A stretch of DNA of 64,000 nt from Botryllus schlosseri. Its lineage: Eukaryota. Positions 853 through 63,545 of the stretch are shown piece after piece; position 1 is the first letter of the stretch; each line of letters starts with the position of its first letter. Position numbers and translations under genes: made by a program. A model generated the notes under the pieces. That model was given only the letters and a program-made list of their open reading frames with translations, was not told the DNA's origin and did not search any database. The stretch is taken from contig CM119372.1 in assembly GCA_051294905.1 (NCBI GenBank), positions 35,776,001 to 35,840,000 of the forward strand, given 5' to 3'.

Positions 853-899
853 GTGCCGTTAACTCCTGAAAAGAGGCACCCGAAAAGTCTTCGAGTTAA
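853..899 (+). ncRNA. Minimal type I hammerhead-like motif, divergent PLE-type family (core variant)
   Basis: TTAACTC-CTGAAAA-G(AGGCACC)C-GAAA-AGTCT-TC-GAGTTAA. Helix I is 7 bp. Upstream GTGCC (853-857) is complementary to loop II GGCAC. The core reads CUGAAAA instead of CUGANGA. Confidence 0.6.
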
Positions 900-2706: not shown

Positions 2707-2750
2707 GCTGACGATTACCCCTGACGAGTGTCAGCCGAAAATATTCGGGT
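2707..2750 (+). ncRNA. Minimal type I hammerhead ribozyme in PLE pLTR, intact core
   Basis: ACCC-CTGACGA-G(TGTCAGC)C-GAAA-ATAT-TC-GGGT. Helix III is the palindrome AATATT. Predicted cleavage is after C2746. 5' GCTGAC (2707-2712) pairs with loop II GTCAGC. Confidence 0.85.
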
Positions 2751-44003: not shown

Positions 44004-44047
44004 GCTGACGATTACCCTGACGTGGATCAACCGAATATATTCGGGTT
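44004..44047 (+). ncRNA. Degenerate PLE hammerhead motif in pLTR remnant (~43995-44090)
   Basis: GCTGACGATTACC-CTGACGT-GGATCAAC-CGAAT-ATAT-TC-GGGT, followed by the same AT-rich pLTR tail as 2750-2790. Confidence 0.65.
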
Positions 44048-45054: not shown

Positions 45055-45493
45055 CAGTGGTGGCTTTTGGGGTGGGCGAGGTGGGCGGTCGCCCGCCCCC
45101 CCCTATTTGGATTTTGCGCTTTTTTGAAGGATAATGACGAATAAACATGGAAATCCGTGTACCGAGCAAGAATATGATTCCGTACAGATGTGTCAATCAT
45201 CATCAAATCACTGCATTTGTTAGAAAAGTCCCGTATCCCGATAATCATCACGTCTCTGCATGCGGTAGAATTACTTAGATTTGATGTAGTCTATCCTTGC
45301 ACACATGCAGAAAAGACATGGCCGAATCCAGCACCTGGGCAAACCTTTGCGGTGGTGAAAGATAGATAATAATAACCGATTATTCGAAAGGGGGGTCTGG
45401 GGGGCGGAGCCCCCCATAAGTTACGGATAGATACTTATAGGCCCCCCCCCGGTAAGTCTCGCCCAGGGCCCCGCGTTCGTAGGGCCACCACTG
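45055..45493. mobile_element. hAT MITE
   Basis: CAGTGGTGGC / GCCACCACTG TIRs. TSD GATGTGGA/GATGGGGA. Confidence 0.8.
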
Positions 45494-46944
45494 GATGGGG
45501 ACACAGCGAGACTGAACGGCTCACGGCATTTGGGTTACGTCATACTTTCCATTTGACCAAAGGAAACTTTACGGACATTTTTGACCGGCTTGGCGGGCGC
45601 TTAATTCAATCAACGGAAAGATGCTGCTGCATTGATTACGAGAATGTAAATTTTATTCTGTTCCTGGTCCTGGTTCCTGGTTCCTTTTATTATTTCAAAC
45701 CGAATTCCATAACTGCATTTCTTGAATACGTGGTTGTGTCTTTAAAATCGAGGCCTTCGATTTCATATGAACGAGAGCTGAAAATCCATTTAGGTTATCA
45801 ACTATTTTGTAAATTTAGAGGCTACGGAGACCCCGCGAAAATGCTTCGTGGACCCCCGGTTGAGAAACACTTTGATAGAGTCAATAGATTCTCGATTTGC
45901 AAAACAAGCGTGCTAGTTGTAAAATAGAAATAGACAGCGACAGAATAACATAAAGCAAACGTTATCATCGCATTGGAATATGTTCAATACTATTTCGCTA
46001 CAATCCCTGAACATGTTCTCCAACTACCGCTATAATGTATCTGCAGTGACTCTACTTAATTTCTACTGTTCCATGATGCTGTGTGTTGCTGGTCTTTTCG
46101 TTCCCAAGTTTTCATTTTTTTTAAATTAGATGTCAACTGTAATTATTGCTCCTGGCTCGGTGACTCAGCTTCAAATACTTTGACATATCGAGTTTCTCGT
46201 CAAGCTTGCATGCCACATTTCACTCTGTTGTGCTATGTGTTACTAGTACAATATATACACACACGCTTACACGGCCACATAACAGATCATCGGTATCTGT
46301 GTTTCACGTGACGCAGAATTTCACGAGGATTACTTCAATACTTCTATTGGATATAGATAGAAATCATTCAAAAAGACCCATATATACGTTGGTATAGCCT
46401 AGTTCTGTTTCACGGACGTTGTCAAGTTCATCATTGCATAATTGCTATTACTGCACACATAGTCGCCAGCTTGTTACACAGACCGTGAGAAGGTTAAGGT
46501 GAAGGTGTTGATCATTTTTTAGTAATCAGCATTTCAAATTGAGAGGTGGGCTCGCGGATCGTTTACAAATCAGAATTCGGGGTCGCGACCTTTAAAATGT
46601 GTAGCGTAATGGTATTCATGGGAAAGTGCAGGAAACGAATTCCAAGTTTAGCAAGTTTCTATGCACATAACTGCTACATGTTGAGAGTTCACGAATCTAT
46701 CAAAATTGTTTTCTTTCGCTTCGCTGGTGCGTGGGTCTACACCTCGCAAAGTCAAGCTGGAAAACTCATCACATATTCTTGCGACCTGAAGTACAGAAGT
46801 CAAAAATCCAAAATTGCATTTGCGGCATCCAATTCTACAATTCAATATGTTGATCGATTACAAAGCCCAATATAAAGTAATCATAGGTAATTTCATTTTC
46901 AATAATCCTATCAATAAATTTTACGGAGTGGCTTTCGGTCCAGT

Positions 46945-50200: not shown

Positions 50201-53200
50201 AGCGGAGACGTCGGATTTTCAAACGGCTCGTTATGGCGTCACAAGTATTAGCTTGGTTCGTTATTGTGCAACAAGTTATCCTCACGTAGTAAATAGACAT
50301 TCGATATACGTACAAGTCAGAATGTACATATACGTACAATTGTACATGTAGTACGGTGATTGTAACACAACACCCGCTAAGCCTTATATCAGGCTATCAA
50401 TACACTCCAGAGTCTAGACGCCGGTGCCTCGCAGCTCGCAGGATAATAATCACCACTCTGCTCAGTTTCAAATATAGTAACGTATGCGTTGATGTTTTGT
50501 TATGCTTAGTTAAACGCACTTTGACCGTTGCTGCTTGACGGGCAGTAGGCTTATTTAGGTACACCGGACAAAGATTTGAAATTTCGTACTTGTCAAATCC
50601 AAAATGACGATTTCCACATAAAAGCATTAAAAACCAATGGTTGCTGATAAAACATCGTAAACTAGCCGTTATTTGCCGTTTCTTGTATAACGGCAGCTCG
50701 AAATATATTTATTAATTGGATCATAGGAAGAATTTTATGTTTATTTTATCTTATTGTCATATGGCTCTCCTGGAAACCAATCGCCAATGGCTATTTCGCA
50801 ATCCCATACTCGTCATTTAGATGTGCACTCTTGGCACTCGCTTATAGACCATGTTAGTGTGGGTTGCAGCTAGAATCAGGACCGAAACAGTATTTAGCCC
50901 ACCCTCAAACGGTGGTTAAGCGCGAAAATTGAGGGCACGTAATTTATAACTATAGCATCTTATGGTGGGCCCGTTATTAATATTACGTAATCAAAAGATA
51001 TTGAAGTCGCCCAAACGTAGCGAACTATAAGAAATCCAAACGTAAATCTTTCGTCAGACGCACCCAGGAAAAATATTCATTTCTGCACGTGGTGCATCAT
51101 TTTCTTTAGTGGGTGCCCCGGTGAGTAATCGTGGTTACTTTTCCAAAGTTATCGTAATCGCAATCGACTACTTGCTGATTTTGCTGTAATAGTAATCGCA
51201 ATCGACTACACTCATGAAGTAGTCACCACATGTCTGCTCATGATACAGACTATTTTCAGTAAGTTTGTATGACAATTCACCTCATAGAAATGCTTTTCAA
51301 AATCCACGGTAAATAATATAGTCGTTTGGTTAATAACGCTGCATGAGGGAAGTAACCCAAAGCATAACCACCCCGGAGTGCAAGTAGGCAAATCCTACTT
51401 GAGTTCTCTACGCCAAAATTGTCGAAGTACTTTGCTACTGACGACCTCTTATTTTACTATTAGTCGAATCGAATCTGATTGACAGCTCCCAATAACCATG
51501 TTTGACTTCCTCGAGTTGACCACTCATTCGCACTGATGGAGCATGCAAGCAATGCCCCATCTAATTTTTCAGGTGTATGCACGCACTCACCAAGTCACTG
51601 CTCGGTCCCTTGGACAACAGTGCGTAAAGACTAAATTAAGGTCATCACTTCGGCTTTATTGTGCGCGCGACACATTTTTCTGTGCGCGCAGACATTGAAA
51701 GCAGTTGCTTTTATTGATCTTATTTTTAATTCAGGTTGTATTTCTTTTTGTGCGCGGCTTATATTTTCTGTGCGCAGAGACCAGGGATATCTAGAGTTTG
51801 AGATATCCCTGGGAGAGACCGTGTCAACAGTGCGCAATTGCGCACGCGCGCAGCTTGGAGGGAACAGTGCATGCAAGCTTACAACAATTCTGCATGTAAC
51901 GCACGCTCGCATACCAGACACCGGCATTTTAAGTGGAGGCTAATACCAGGAAAAGATATATTGGCAAATATCAAAAAATTGGTAAGCCAATTTTCTCCCT
52001 GTTCTCGTGGGTGTCAGTTGAGATTTTGGTAACAGATTGTAAAACTCCATGAGTTACATCAAACGCACGCATTGGCTTAGTTGTGACTATGGCCGTTACA
52101 GAGATATTGACAAATAGAGTGATTTTGGGGTATAAAACTTTTTTGCAACCCAGTTTTCTTTATGTTCGCATGCGTTGTCAGTTTAAATTTTGGTATCAGA
52201 TTGTGTAAGTCTAAGAGCTACATTGAACTCGCGCATTGGCTTTGTTGTGGCTAAAGCCGTTCAACAGATATTGACAAATACAGTGAATTTTGGTGGTACT
52301 TTGTTATATTGAATAGTATATTCAATATTCATATTGAAATGAACCCGAATATTTTCGGCTGACACTTGTCAGGGGTAATCGTCAACAACTAGTAGATAAT
52401 TCAAAAGAAACATCGTATATCAACAATCGTAGATCAACAACGTTGGTATATGTTACCGATGGTCTACGGATTAGATTTCGGTATCACGCCCGCAAACCAG
52501 ACACTGGCATGTGAAGAAGAGGGAAATACCCTAAAGAGGTATCTGCTCTACTTCTGTCATCAAACGATTTTCACATATTAAAGATATCAGTGTACAATTT
52601 GGGGTTGCATTTAAAACAAACGGTGTTTTAAAACACTTTGTTTAAAACATGTTTCAAACAGTGTTTTAAAGAACGGCCTTTCAAAAAAATTGTGTTTTTT
52701 TAAAGCTGTAAAATTATGCCATAATTGTGTCAATACTTTACAAAAAACATGTTGTATGAGCCTACGGACAATTACCACCCTATGTAGACGACGTATATCG
52801 ATGTGGGATGATTGAAACCCACAACATAGTCGGTTCAACAGCAATTAGCCTACACATATTTCGTCAAACGAGCTATTCTTACCCTATTTTTTCAATTGTC
52901 AATGTCAATCCCCTATGACGTCACAATTGAATATTCGTGACGTCATGTTTTTTTTTTAAAACATAAAAAACTATAAAAAACATGTTTTAAATCAGTGCCT
53001 TGTTTTAAACATATTTGTTTTAAATCGATTTTTGTTTTAAATGCAACCCTAGTACAATTGTACAGTACATACGCGGGATTCGATTCACGCCTTAGGAAGT
53101 ATGAGCGGCCTATGTGCAGAGGGACTTACGATATTCGAACACTTTCCACCCTGTCGAGTTGTGGAAATGAAGGAATTACATTGACGATTTAGGTCGAAAG

Positions 53201-56861: not shown

Positions 56862-58889
56862 CAGGGCTGTGGAGTCGGTAAATTTTACCACCGACTCCGG
56901 CTCCGACTCCGACTCCACACATTTTCAATGTACCGACTCCGACTCCGATTCCGACTCCCGAGTCTTTAAAAGTATAGACTCCGACTCCGACTCCTGGGTC
57001 TTTAAACGTACTGACTCCGACTCCCGACTCCGACTCCAGCATTATCACCAATTTACTTCGAAAATTATGTGCCACTTGTCGGTTGAATGACTATCATACA
57101 ACCATTAGACATATGCAAACATATGATTAACGGTGGCATGCTATATTGTTTCTTTGTGGCACAGCTCGAATTATCCACTATGCAATTAACATGAAAGAAA
57201 GATTTGCTAAATATCCTTCCTTTTTCAAGTTTTTATAACATGGAATCTCTAATATCCTGAAATGTATGAATCATTCAAATATGGCAGATATCCAATCCTG
57301 TATAATAAAAATGTCGATAAAAAATCCGAGTGTAGCTCTTGTGTATGAGTCATCAACTAATAAAGAGATTGAACTTACTAATTTTGTCATTGCACACTCT
57401 CCTGATTACAAGCACACACACTCTTACTACTAATAGACATTGGTCATAAATGGAATTTAGTTAAGTAGCCAAAGACCATAGCCTATGTCTAGTCTGCATG
57501 TACTTAATCAAGTATTCAAGGATTGGGACTTGCAATCTTTCTTAATCATTTGTTCGACCCAAACAGCTAAGCTACACTACAAATATTTTCAATTTTGTCA
57601 AGTGGGAAGCATCGTTTCGTCATATTTACATCATTTTTACACCTTTACAAAACCAGGCGATGCATTTGCTCTGTCACAGTATCATGGTATAATTCCAAAA
57701 ATTGCATCAATTTTGACTGCATCGCGAAAACGCATATTGCGATTTTCTTCCCCTGTGCAACTGAGTTGTAATTTGCAAGTAATGTCTAATTTTATCTATA
57801 TCAGGGGTGGGCAACTTTTTCGGCTAAAGGAACACATGAGATTTACGAACCATTGCGCGGGCAACTGGAATGTTGATAACCTTTTTTTAGTCCTCCGATA
57901 GGAGCGAACCGAATTAGGTAACATTGCAAACAAGACTTATAATAATACGCTCCAAAATTGATAGCAATATGTCATGCAACTGTGCAGTGCGCAATCAGGC
58001 CCTGGTCGCTCGAAGCGTGAAATTTTTTTGCAAGATAATGACTGGATTATATCAATAAATATGTTGCTATACATTGGGGGTCGCATCTGTATACCACTGG
58101 GCTCATTTGGCAAGGACAGGATTATTCGACGTTTAGACATAGCAAAATCGACGGTATCAGTGAACAATGTGAACATGCCTCTATCATTTTGTGCAAATGT
58201 TTTGTCGACGATCTCGCTGCGAGTGCACAAGCGAAGCGGCATGTTGGACGACACGTTATCTCCTAATTGCGAATATAGTTAGACTCAATTTTGTGAATAA
58301 TATGTATTTATAATTTTCAGAAGGGAGCTCTAATACTGAATGCAAGAAATCTAGTGACAATTAATGAATCATGCGAAGTACCGAGAAAAATTTCAAGTCA
58401 AATAAATCTGCTATGAAATATTATACTTTATGGTCATATAGAAAGATCTGGGATAAATGTGGTTGGCCCCTGGATGCGTCAATGCGTCACCACTGTTGTT
58501 TTAGTCATCATTAAATTTCGCGGTCATGCTAATCAAATTTTGGTTGGCCTTGCAATTGTACCTGATGTCATAAATAATTTCGAGAATTACCTCGCGGGCC
58601 ACACCTAACCTTCTCGTGTGCCAAATTTGGCCTGCGTGTCACGGGCTGACCGAACCTGATCTGTATGGTTATTAATAACATTGATTGGTGGAACATAGAA
58701 ATTATATTGACAATTCTTTGAAAGCAAATGTTTTCATGATAGAGAAGTAGGAGTCGGAGTCGAAGTCAGGGTCATTCTCACAAACTCCGACTCCGACTCC
58801 AGTCAGTATTTTCTCCACGACTCCGACTCCGACTCCGGGTGCCATCATGCGAAAATTACCCAGACTCCGACTCCGACTCCGCAGCCCTG
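56862..58889. mobile_element. hAT MITE with (GACTCC)n arrays, nested in MITE ~56815-59460 and hosting a further hAT MITE (~57802-58658)
   Basis: CAGGGCTG / CAGCCCTG ends and perfect TSD GTGTGAAC. The inner element has near-TSD ATCTATAT/ATCTGTAT and a homolog at ~27000-27660. Confidence 0.88.
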
Positions 58890-61830: not shown

Positions 61831-62329
61831 CACATTGTTGGTATTTCATCTATCAGTCCTGATACTTGGAAAATAGGGCCAGAAACTGATAAGACTGAAG
61901 AGAATTGAGAGAATATGACCCCACCTCGTAAGGGTTAAAGCACTGTATTGCTGCAGGACATTCAAGCTCAAAGATAGTAGAAAGTAATCTTTGGTCTATT
62001 CTAGAGCCCGACCGATATTAGATTTTTGGATCGATACCGATAAAACCGATATCTCCTACCTTGACCGAGAACCCAGATACATTCAGCCGATATTCAAAAG
62101 AAGTGGAATATGCCTTAACCCTTACGAGGTGGGGTCATATTTCGTAGAACTGACCATCACTTTTTAAATTCATACCGTGATCCCACCAAGACTTGAATCT
62201 GGGCCGTTCCAGTTTAAAATTGGGCGGAGTAGGCCTATATCGACACCGCAAGACATGTCTAGGTTTTTTCATATTGAGACGCTTAGGAGTACAGAACTTC
62301 ATAACACATTTGAATAAAATATTCATATT

Positions 62330-62377
62330 TATTCCCGAAGCTTTTCGGCTGACGCTCGTCAGGGGAATATCGTCAGC
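62330..62377 (-). ncRNA. Minimal type I hammerhead ribozyme in PLE pLTR, intact core
   Basis: GCTGACG-A-TATTCCC-CTGACGA-G(CGTCAGC)C-GAAA-AGCT-TC-GGGAATA. Helix I is 7 bp, helix III is the palindrome AAGCTT, and there is a 7-bp loop II pseudoknot. Confidence 0.9.
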
Positions 62378-62511: not shown

Positions 62512-63426
62512 TTAATGCGCGATTTTCAAATGATACACAAATTCTTTCTGTTGGCATAAACTAGGTTTACTCATAGTGATGATGGTGGACTCAAGAACAG
62601 ACAAATGAAATAAATTGCGACCCTTAGCCAATACAGAGAACATGTCCTCGTGATAGTTAGCAGCACATGTATGGTTTTCTAGTAAATGTTTGCCAATAGA
62701 AGATTTTTGACTCATGGCCTGGTTATGTTCTAGAACAAGCGGATTGTTATGCTGCGATTTCGAGATATATGATTTGACAGACGGTGGGATGTGTTCTTTA
62801 ATTCGGTCCTGCAACCGTTTGGAAGTTCTCCCTACGTACCGACAATCGCAGTGGCACTTGAATTCATAAATGACGTTACTTTGTTGTAAAGCCGGGAGAA
62901 CGTCCTTTCGGACTGCAGGAAGCATTGGTATCGTGGTAAAAACAACATTGGTTTTCACCGCTGGATAACAGCGATGGACTGCTGAAGTGATCTGTTTCTC
63001 AAATCGATAAGAAACCGGGCCAATCCAAGGTAGATGAATGTACACATCCCTATTTTCACGAGAGACTTCTTCGGGGGTTTCATTTGGTTTGGTATCATTC
63101 CGATGACTTAACTTATTATTTATTGTCCGCTTGATGACAAACTCAGGGTATCCGTTGTCAATGAAAAGTTTACGGATGTAATCAAGTTCACTATTCAATT
63201 TGACCTCGGAACAAATCATCAACGCCCGGTGGACCAAGCTGCCGATTAAATTGATTTTACGACTTTTTGGACTGAAAGAGCTCCATCGAAGGTAATGACC
63301 CGAAAACGTGGGCTTCCTATAAACGGAGGTAAGGAATTGGCCATCCCGTTTCTCCACAAGAACGCCAAGGAATGCCAGCCGGTTGTTAATTTCTTTTTCC
63401 GACGTGAATTGCAATGCTGGATGTAA
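62512..63426 (-). CDS. PLE ORF, C-terminal ~300 aa (RT end/thumb and GIY-YIG endonuclease), no start
   Basis: LHPALQFTSEKE..LAFLGVLV, VYRKPT, NGYP, NVIYEFKCHCDCRYVGRTSKRLQDRIKEH, IGKHL and LES. The frame is uninterrupted. Confidence 0.9.
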   Translation of the reverse strand, partial: LHPALQFTSEKEINNRLAFLGVLVEKRDGQFLTSVYRKPTFSGHYLRWSSFSPKSRKINLIGSLVHRALMICSEVKLNSELDYIRKLFIDNGYPEFVIKRTINNKLSHRNDTKPNETPEEVSRENRDVYIHLPWIGPVSYRFEKQITSAVHRCYPAVKTNVVFTTIPMLPAVRKDVLPALQQSNVIYEFKCHCDCRYVGRTSKRLQDRIKEHIPPSVKSYISKSQHNNPLVLEHNQAMSQKSSIGKHLLENHTCAANYHEDMFSVLAKGRNLFHLSVLESTIITMSKPSLCQQKEFVYHLKIAH

Positions 63427-63545
63427 TTTGTCGGTACGTAGGGAGAACTTCCAAACGGTTGCAGGACCGAATTAAAGAACACATGCCACCGTCTGTCAAA
63501 TCATATATCTCGAAATCGCAGCATAACAATCCGCTTGTTCTAGAA

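Follow-up and report, generated by a model that had tools for sequence, protein, structure and literature searches.

A hammerhead ribozyme with a helix II of a single base pair raises the question of how such an RNA could fold, and six motifs of this kind lie in the window, by which we mean the whole 64,000-nucleotide stretch of Botryllus schlosseri DNA that was analyzed. The hammerheads published for Penelope-like elements sit in the pseudo-LTR and have a large helix II (6 to 8 bp), a bulged base and, in the available text, no recognized contact between helices I and II (PMC4209133, PMC7761336). The same sources describe low activity in vitro, call the role of these ribozymes a mystery, and note the missing helix I/II contact, which natural hammerheads need for speed. 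For the motif at 62330 to 62377 and five others, a first-pass annotation had proposed that loop II pairs with an arm upstream of helix I. We consider it probable that all six are pseudoknotted minimal type I hammerheads which, with the fold and role proposed below, belong to the pseudo-LTR of one clade of Penelope-like elements.

Six hammerhead motifs in the window

Direct reading of the window sequence located all six motifs where they had been annotated. In RNA sense, an arm is followed in each copy by a linker of 1 to 4 nt, helix I, a 7-nt core strand, a G, a 7-nt loop, a C, GAA, 6 to 7 nt of helix III, a base other than G, and the return strand of helix I. On the strength of this anatomy, we regard the six as copies of a type I hammerhead. 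The copy of the AAGCTT type at 62377-62330 (minus strand), read directly, has an intact core and scored 58.1 bits with covariance model R1. Its arm spans 62377-62372 (plus G 62371), helix I 62369-62363 and 62336-62330, and the core strand 62362-62356; G10.1 lies at 62355, the loop at 62354-62348, C11.1 at 62347, GAA at 62346-62344, helix III at 62343-62338, and the H17 residue, a C, at 62337. The core is also intact in the copy at 2707-2750 (plus strand), which represents the commonest type (82.8 bits). Here the arm occupies 2707-2712, helix I 2717-2720 and 2747-2750, the core strand 2721-2727, G 2728, the loop 2729-2735, C 2736, GAA 2737-2739, and helix III (AATATT) 2740-2745; H17 is C2746, and an ATG follows at 2761. 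The cuts predicted beforehand, after C2746 on the plus strand and after 62337 on the minus strand, both coincide with H17 positions.

The remaining copies are altered to various degrees. A decayed inverted partner of the 2707 copy lies at 2448-2405 on the minus strand (site 2404; 63.2 bits); its core strand is intact, but a G-to-A change in the loop creates a mismatch to the arm, position 15.1 is T, and helix III reads TACATT. The copy of the GTGCC-arm family at 853-899 (plus strand) has its arm at 853-857, helix I at 859-865 and 893-899, a core CTGAAAA at 866-872, its loop at 874-880, helix III (AAGTCTT) at 885-891, and H17 at C892. Decay is evident in a copy of the commonest type at 44004-44046 (plus strand; 43.4 bits), in which one base of helix I is gone, the core reads CTGACGT (A9 to U), the loop GATCAAC, position 15.1 T, and helix III TATATT. 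Another copy of the commonest type, at 52386-52343 on the minus strand (site 52342; 78 bits; H17 at 52347), has the core CTGACAA (G8 to A) and the arm GTTGAC, which places a G-U pair inside the pseudoknot. The CUGANGA core ascribed to all six motifs is thus found in three of them (2707, 2404, and 62330), the others reading CUGACAA (52342), CUGACGU (44004), and CUGAAAA (853). Likewise, the description of helix III as AATATT or AAGCTT fits the copies other than those at 2404, 44004, and 853, and the mismatch at 2404 is an exception to the arm/loop complementarity.

Model R1, which was built in part from the same window copies that it recovers, returned the six at E values of 1e-18 to 1e-8 and found just these six convincingly in the window. 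A weak match at 58347-58411 (plus strand; 13.6 bits, E 0.46) is probably due to chance or to a very decayed copy. Generic descriptors were less telling: Rfam at gathering level gave no match within the window, and Hammerhead_1, in a 201-nt search, aligned end to end with 62331-62368 on the minus strand at 22.8 bits (E 0.0018), whereas its gathering score is 34. When a loose 20-nt pattern was allowed 2 mismatches, the window gave 24 matches versus a mean of 17.5, a count reached by 8 of 100 shuffles and therefore not above chance.

Huge repeat families of the host genome contain the motif

The 495.5-Mb host assembly (219 contigs) was searched with patterns of up to 35 places. The exact 20-mer pattern of the main type gave 6213 matches, compared to 0 for the reversed control; a pattern with a purine at N7 gave 422 versus 9, and one with a TTGAAAA core gave 844 versus 22. 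The motif is a member of huge repeat families, within each of which the copies are mostly near-identical.

Pattern searches and short fetched stretches yielded at least five arm/loop versions in the host. The GCTGAC/GTCAGC version accounts for the 6213 matches and combines a helix I of ACCC/GGGT or TATYCCC/GGGAATA with AATATT or AAGCTT as helix III. ACTGGC/GCCAGT has a helix I of TTCACTG/CAGTGGA or TCACTC/GAGTGG and AAGCTT as helix III; read by eye, it made up about 38 of the first 100 matches listed from the purine-N7 search. TCTGGC/GCCAGA, seen in one inverted pair, shares helix I with the ACTGGC type and has the AAGCTT helix III, which is also present in ACTGGT/ACCAGT, where helix I is TTCGCTC/GAGCGAA. 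Finally, GTGCC/GGCAC has the core UUGAAAA, a helix I of TTAACTC/GAGTTAA, and AAGTCTT as helix III, and it corresponds to the 844 TTGAAAA matches.

This last family is that of site 853. Its core pairs U3 with A8 in 844 copies, versus 9 with C3, and C866 of the 853 copy is a private or rare T-to-C change from the family core. An inverted partner of the 853 copy lies about 170 to 230 nt before the first base of the window (L035:420-482, minus strand); the two are the same over 63 nt save for TTGAAAA in place of CTGAAAA. A GC-rich repeat of the form TTGAAAAG-7nt-CGAAA (L090, L091, and L092, on contig C1) was considered as a further family and rejected, as it offers no helix I or III that fits. In this repeat, which is probably unrelated, a TCTGGG about 40 nt upstream is complementary to the loop.

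The motif lies between two frames of a Penelope-like element

A 319-amino-acid open frame at 62512-63471 (minus strand) represents the 3' part of an element frame and ends in a GIY-YIG-like domain (weak match, E 0.001). Its stop lies 134 nt upstream of the arm of the 62330 copy, and the ATG of the next, truncated element frame (MNILFKC...), read directly, lies at 62324-62326 (minus strand), 10 nt past the predicted cut. The same arrangement was found in the genomic copy L004. Here a 464-amino-acid frame matching RVT_1 (E 1.7e-8) has its stop 91 nt upstream of the arm; behind the cut, the ATG follows after 14 nt and the end of the insertion after about 70 nt. In the host genome, the motif is placed 10 to 15 nt before the start codon of elements encoding a reverse transcriptase and GIY-YIG; database relatives of the protein are about 840 amino acids long, with DKG, YxDD-type, and C-terminal GIY-YIG motifs. 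Some pairs of motifs on the same strand are 2692 nt apart (C1:13418401 and 13421093), which is the size of one unit.

With the stop of one frame before it and the ATG of the next behind it, the motif occupies the pseudo-LTR position, and the element that carries it is a Penelope-like element of the canonical kind, whose endonuclease is C-terminal. The pseudo-LTR setting named in the first-pass annotation is supported by both domain matches and by the position between stop and ATG. Penelope-like elements are described as carrying hammerheads at such a place (PMC4209133, PMC8557442). Inverted pairs, 2404/2707 among them, represent the head-to-head insertions that are usual for these elements (PMC8557442). 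The window also holds a 183-amino-acid open frame at 45376-45927 (plus strand) without a Pfam match.

Relatives outside the host genome

Scanning metagenome contigs with an alignment of the element protein gave 79 loci. Relatives with pseudoknot versions have 48 to 76% protein identity and add three further arm/loop versions. In those at 54 to 76% identity, the arm TCTGAC faces the loop GTCAGA, with a new U-A first pair, and the pairing is intact in 8 of 11 copies; this family keeps the 8-nt spacing, has the core UUGAAGA (U3 with G8), and places the ATG 3 nt past the cut. Locus L103 combines CGACG/TGTCG with a helix I of 6 bp, a linker of 4 nt, and a palindromic helix III of 10 nt, and L153 has GCATT/AATGC within a 6-nt loop at 8-nt spacing. 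At 27 to 41% identity, the relatives show the published minimal form, with a bulged base, a helix II of 5 to 8 bp, and GAAACGTY. Since close relatives are pseudoknotted and distant ones have the minimal form, the pseudoknot form marks one clade.

Ordinary minimal hammerheads with a long helix II and TTGAxAA cores (U3 with A8) were seen at L124, L134, L150, L166, and L173; the U3-A8 cores of these distant loci indicate that the swap of the core pair recurs in several lineages. A different small hammerhead, with helix II GATAAC/GTTATC and the sequence GAAACGTT, occurs twice in one locus (L125:1992, plus strand, and 607, minus strand). One of its two copies lies inside a stretch matching the element protein and may be a nested mini-element.

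Conservation of the core and of helices I and III

Alignment A1 comprises 66 of 120 distinct pattern matches from the window and the fetched loci. Left out were matches that lacked the flanks of a family, seven copies that are cut short or interrupted within the motif, and two rows of the GTGCC family; the sample is enriched for decayed copies. U4, G5, A6, G12, A13, and A14 were invariant in 66 of 66 copies, and A15.1-U16.1 was present in 60. The pair G10.1-C11.1 was G-C in 65 copies and G-U in one, helix II being otherwise absent; no closed helix II of several pairs was seen, and the 7-nt loop behind the single pair has its complement elsewhere. Of the six window copies, three retain the full core.

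Helix I had been said to change sequence while keeping complementarity, and this held: six of its seven pairs vary on both sides in A1, and the inner four are paired in 88 to 92% of cells. Across lineages, helix I measures 4 to 7 bp, the commonest type being at the lower limit with only 4. At H17, the host genome has C and L103 has A, whereas U prevails in the metagenome family. For the whole structure, 80.8% of the cells of A1 pair, compared to 69.8% after shuffling (reached in 0 of 500 shuffles) and at most 43.7% with slid partners. Helix III strands are either palindromic (AATATT, AAGCTT, and AAAAGCTTTT) or contain a central mismatch (AAGTCTT and AACTTGTT). The central dinucleotide is GC in 29 and UA in 21 copies of A1; as these are adjacent bases, helix III could pair only between two molecules.

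Loop II covaries with an upstream arm

Six of the seven loop bases are complementary to a 6-nt arm located 8 to 10 nt upstream of the core. Six lineages have 8 nt between arm and core, and distances of 9 and 10 nt are each found in a single lineage. The first-pass annotation had claimed that this complementarity persists despite changes in sequence, and the host versions together with A1 bear it out: 84.1% of 396 cells pair, compared to 70.6% after shuffling (0 of 500 shuffles reach this value) and 13.6 to 36.6% when the partner is slid by 1 to 3 columns. Covariation, which had been proposed as a check on a larger alignment, was thus found on 66 copies, with changes on both sides in five of the six pseudoknot pairs. 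The first pair is G-C in 25, A-U in 21, and U-A in 2 copies, the second is C-G in 45 and G-C in 10, and the fifth is G-C in 21, A-U in 16, and C-G in 10; the two middle pairs (U-A and G-C) are constant at the family level. These counts rest on roughly eight lineages, not on many independent events. Of the 5 to 7 bp originally proposed, 5 to 6 are kept; the seventh is Watson-Crick only in copies like 62330. A seventh pair is not general, since families differ in their first loop base, which can be T, G, C, or A.

These data bear on the possibility that the motif is a dead relic, alike merely through recent amplification and with an arm that is complementary by chance or by hitchhiking. Near-identity within families, the breakage of three of the six window copies, and RNA reads without a cleavage signal (see below) would all suit such a relic. 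Eight lineages with different arms nevertheless keep 5 to 6 complementary bases at the same place. In fixed register, at least five of six pairs form in 50 of 67 family rows, and the same complementarity is seen in only 4 of 53 unrelated pattern matches. The core bases are also invariant across families whose proteins share about 50 to 70% identity, and we consider the relic explanation very improbable. Individual decayed copies do carry uncompensated changes, as is to be expected once a copy has inserted: the loop reads TGCCTGC in 5 of the copies listed, four of which keep the arm GCTGAC, with the arm region replaced in the fifth.

In the two commonest types, arm plus linker form nearly the same 8-mer as the catalytic strand CTGACGA (window 2707-2735 and 62377-62348, minus strand). 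Arm and core may compete for loop II; the other families show no such resemblance. The idea that the arm, reading like CUGACGA in these two types, acts as a second catalytic strand was discarded on inspection: nothing upstream of the arm pairs with the bases behind the cut, and the arms of the other families are unlike the core.

A proposed fold without a closed helix II

The pairing pattern suggests a fold in which helix II is reduced to the single pair G10.1-C11.1 and loop bases 2 to 7 pair with the 6-nt arm. The arm would supply the missing 5' strand of helix II, directed away from the core, and loop bases 7 to 2 would extend the 3' strand outward from C11.1. Loop base 1 would span the groove, and short loops cross a groove in H-type pseudoknots. 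The linker of 1 to 4 nt would tie together the outer ends of helices II and I, keeping both side by side, an arrangement that the active fold needs. Helix I and linker together measure 8, 9, or 10 nt in all lineages, a constancy that fits the proposed linker geometry, and 1 to 4 nt between arm and helix I leave no room for an extra hairpin (helix IV).

Covariation proves a helix, not its coexistence with helix I, and the arm-loop helix and the hammerhead fold could be alternatives, the former being a separate hairpin, its loop containing the core and the 5' strand of helix I, that serves as a protein-binding or priming site or as an off-switch. The arm-loop hairpin is the lowest-energy nested fold in the GTGCC type, RNA reads pass the cut site uncleaved, and another Penelope-like element is reported to start reverse transcription in a stem-loop, with cleavage dispensable in vitro (PMC11167929). 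Nested minimum free energy folding, a method blind to pseudoknots, gave z scores of -2.0 to +0.6 for six copies, without significant energy. It also returned competing hairpins, in which GAA pairs with UUC around helix III or, in the two commonest types, loop II pairs with the core strand (5 bp between loop II and C3-N7). Helix I, however, covaries as well (six of seven pairs), so that both helices are kept, and the spacing of 8 to 10 nt from arm to core persists despite a variable helix I, as would fit a three-dimensional constraint. Moreover, a solved pseudoknot hammerhead in which the two helices form together has the same topology, the same single G-C pair, and a pseudoknot of the same length (6 bp). 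In that structure (PDB 8YDC; Zhan et al. 2024, PMC11300833), A9-G12 and G10.1-C11.1 are described as being kept, and a 6-bp pseudoknot coaxial with helix III acts as helix II, with helix I beside it. We therefore favor coexistence of the two helices and judge mutually exclusive folds to be unlikely.

The arm of one ribozyme might also pair with loop II of another, giving a doubly linked dimer joined through helix III as well. Covariation is blind to the difference between pairing in cis and in trans, and helix III is palindromic in every lineage, so that two copies are expected to meet. The short linker and the constant spacing are nonetheless those expected of a link in cis between the outer ends of helices I and II, and the solved pseudoknot hammerhead pairs in cis according to its published description (PMC11300833). 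Such a trans pseudoknot seems to us distinctly unlikely.

In the preferred fold, with the pseudoknot in cis, helix III would be a palindrome or quasi-palindrome of 6 to 10 nt that is unable to close on itself, and two ribozymes would pair through it. The working of such hammerheads as dimers has reportedly been shown by Lunse et al. in 2017. Dimerization through helix III has been proposed for Penelope-like elements (PMC4209133).

Predicted role and RNA reads

The predicted cut lies 3 to 15 nt before the start codon, and cleavage would probably serve to shorten read-through or tandem transcripts, leaving an RNA that starts just before the open frame. RNA reads from four runs with the same species label, aligned to one copy, were continuous over the predicted cut, and no pileup of starts or ends was reported there; in the bulk run, the depth was 217/211 before and 183/193 after the cut. 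On both strands, depth was 200 to 670 in the final 200 nt of the element, and it was 5 to 30 over the frame. Most reads, which lie on both strands, run into unrelated flanks and so come from truncated solo copies within other transcripts. The absence of read ends is compatible with partial or dimer-dependent cleavage as well as with none, and a similar lack of RNA ends is described for a Penelope-like element of Anolis, which needed no hammerhead to insert in vitro (PMC11167929). Genomic copies reach about 70 nt past the cut, so that the RNA that was copied had not been cut at that ribozyme.

At L004:1414-1505, reads with a "goes back 92" joint and 22 extra letters were seen (12 in X21 and 3 in X24); they may stem from a copy with a local duplication of the 3' UTR.

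DISCUSSION

The motifs resemble the published minimal hammerheads of Penelope-like elements (PMC4209133) in their pseudo-LTR location, type I layout, short helix I, tiny palindromic helix III, and thousands of copies; they differ from them in that helix II is a single pair, with a 6-bp pseudoknot in place of the large stem. The solution for helix II as such has already been published for other hammerheads (PMC3088659, PMC11300833). Pseudoknots between helices I and II are reported for about 40% of hammerheads, and compensatory mutants showed that one hammerhead with a one-pair stem II requires its pseudoknot (Perreault et al. 2011, PMC3088659). In pseudoknot hammerheads, as here, the loop behind the G10.1-C11.1 pair makes a helix of about 6 bp with a stretch on the helix I side, and this helix stands in for helix II (PMC3088659, PMC11300833). 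In PDB 8YDC, however, an extra hairpin (helix IV) provides the partner from its loop and holds the linker in its minor groove (PMC11300833), whereas the form proposed here would be hairpin free. The published pseudoknot hammerheads are further described as monomers with a closed helix III, and, in the available text, their reported sources are bacteria, phage, metagenomes, and mammalian introns, with no retroelement among them (PMC3088659, PMC11300833).

Further parallels are found in viruses and in other retroelements. The type I hammerheads in the 5' UTRs of chrysoviruses and fusariviruses also have a very short helix II (0 to 2 bp there, one pair here) (NAR 2026, PMC13725137), and their cut lies 7 nt before the start codon (PMC13725137), compared to the 3 to 15 nt predicted here. 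These viral ribozymes, which show low activity in vitro, have been proposed to yield an uncapped translated RNA (PMC13725137). They differ in having a long helix III, in acting as monomers, and in belonging to RNA viruses and not to retroelements, and the available text recognizes no helix I/II contact in them (PMC13725137). The HDV-like ribozymes at the 5' end of non-LTR retrotransposons such as R2 offer a functional analogy only: there too, a self-cleaving RNA directly upstream of an open frame is reported to release the frame from the transcript that precedes it (PMC6765202), with a ribozyme class and an element class other than those considered here (PMC6765202).

A full-text literature search found no description of a pseudoknot in Penelope-like hammerheads; Lunse 2017 above all, as well as Weinberg 2015 and Arkhipova 2017, may already show the pairing. 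What appears to be new is the hairpin-free pseudoknot form in Penelope-like elements.

Some Naiad elements without canonical hammerheads are described as carrying a bare "HHR_core" consisting of CUGANGA, 7 to 17 nt, and GAAA (Craig et al. 2021, PMC8557442). It is conceivable, if doubtful, that pseudoknot hammerheads without a proper helix II are common among Penelope-like elements and have escaped stem-loop descriptors, that some of these cores are active, and that the arm turns them into fast cutters. If so, fast cutting aided by the arm would contrast with the weak activity of the published minimal constructs.

The general picture of what a hammerhead is remains unchanged by these findings. 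For practical work, the pseudoknot would explain why the active form escapes any construct or search descriptor beginning at helix I, and the motif may offer a simple, hairpin-free pseudoknot hammerhead for studies of structure and for engineering. For the elements themselves, a covarying pseudoknot within one clade would mean that the ribozyme fold itself is under selection.
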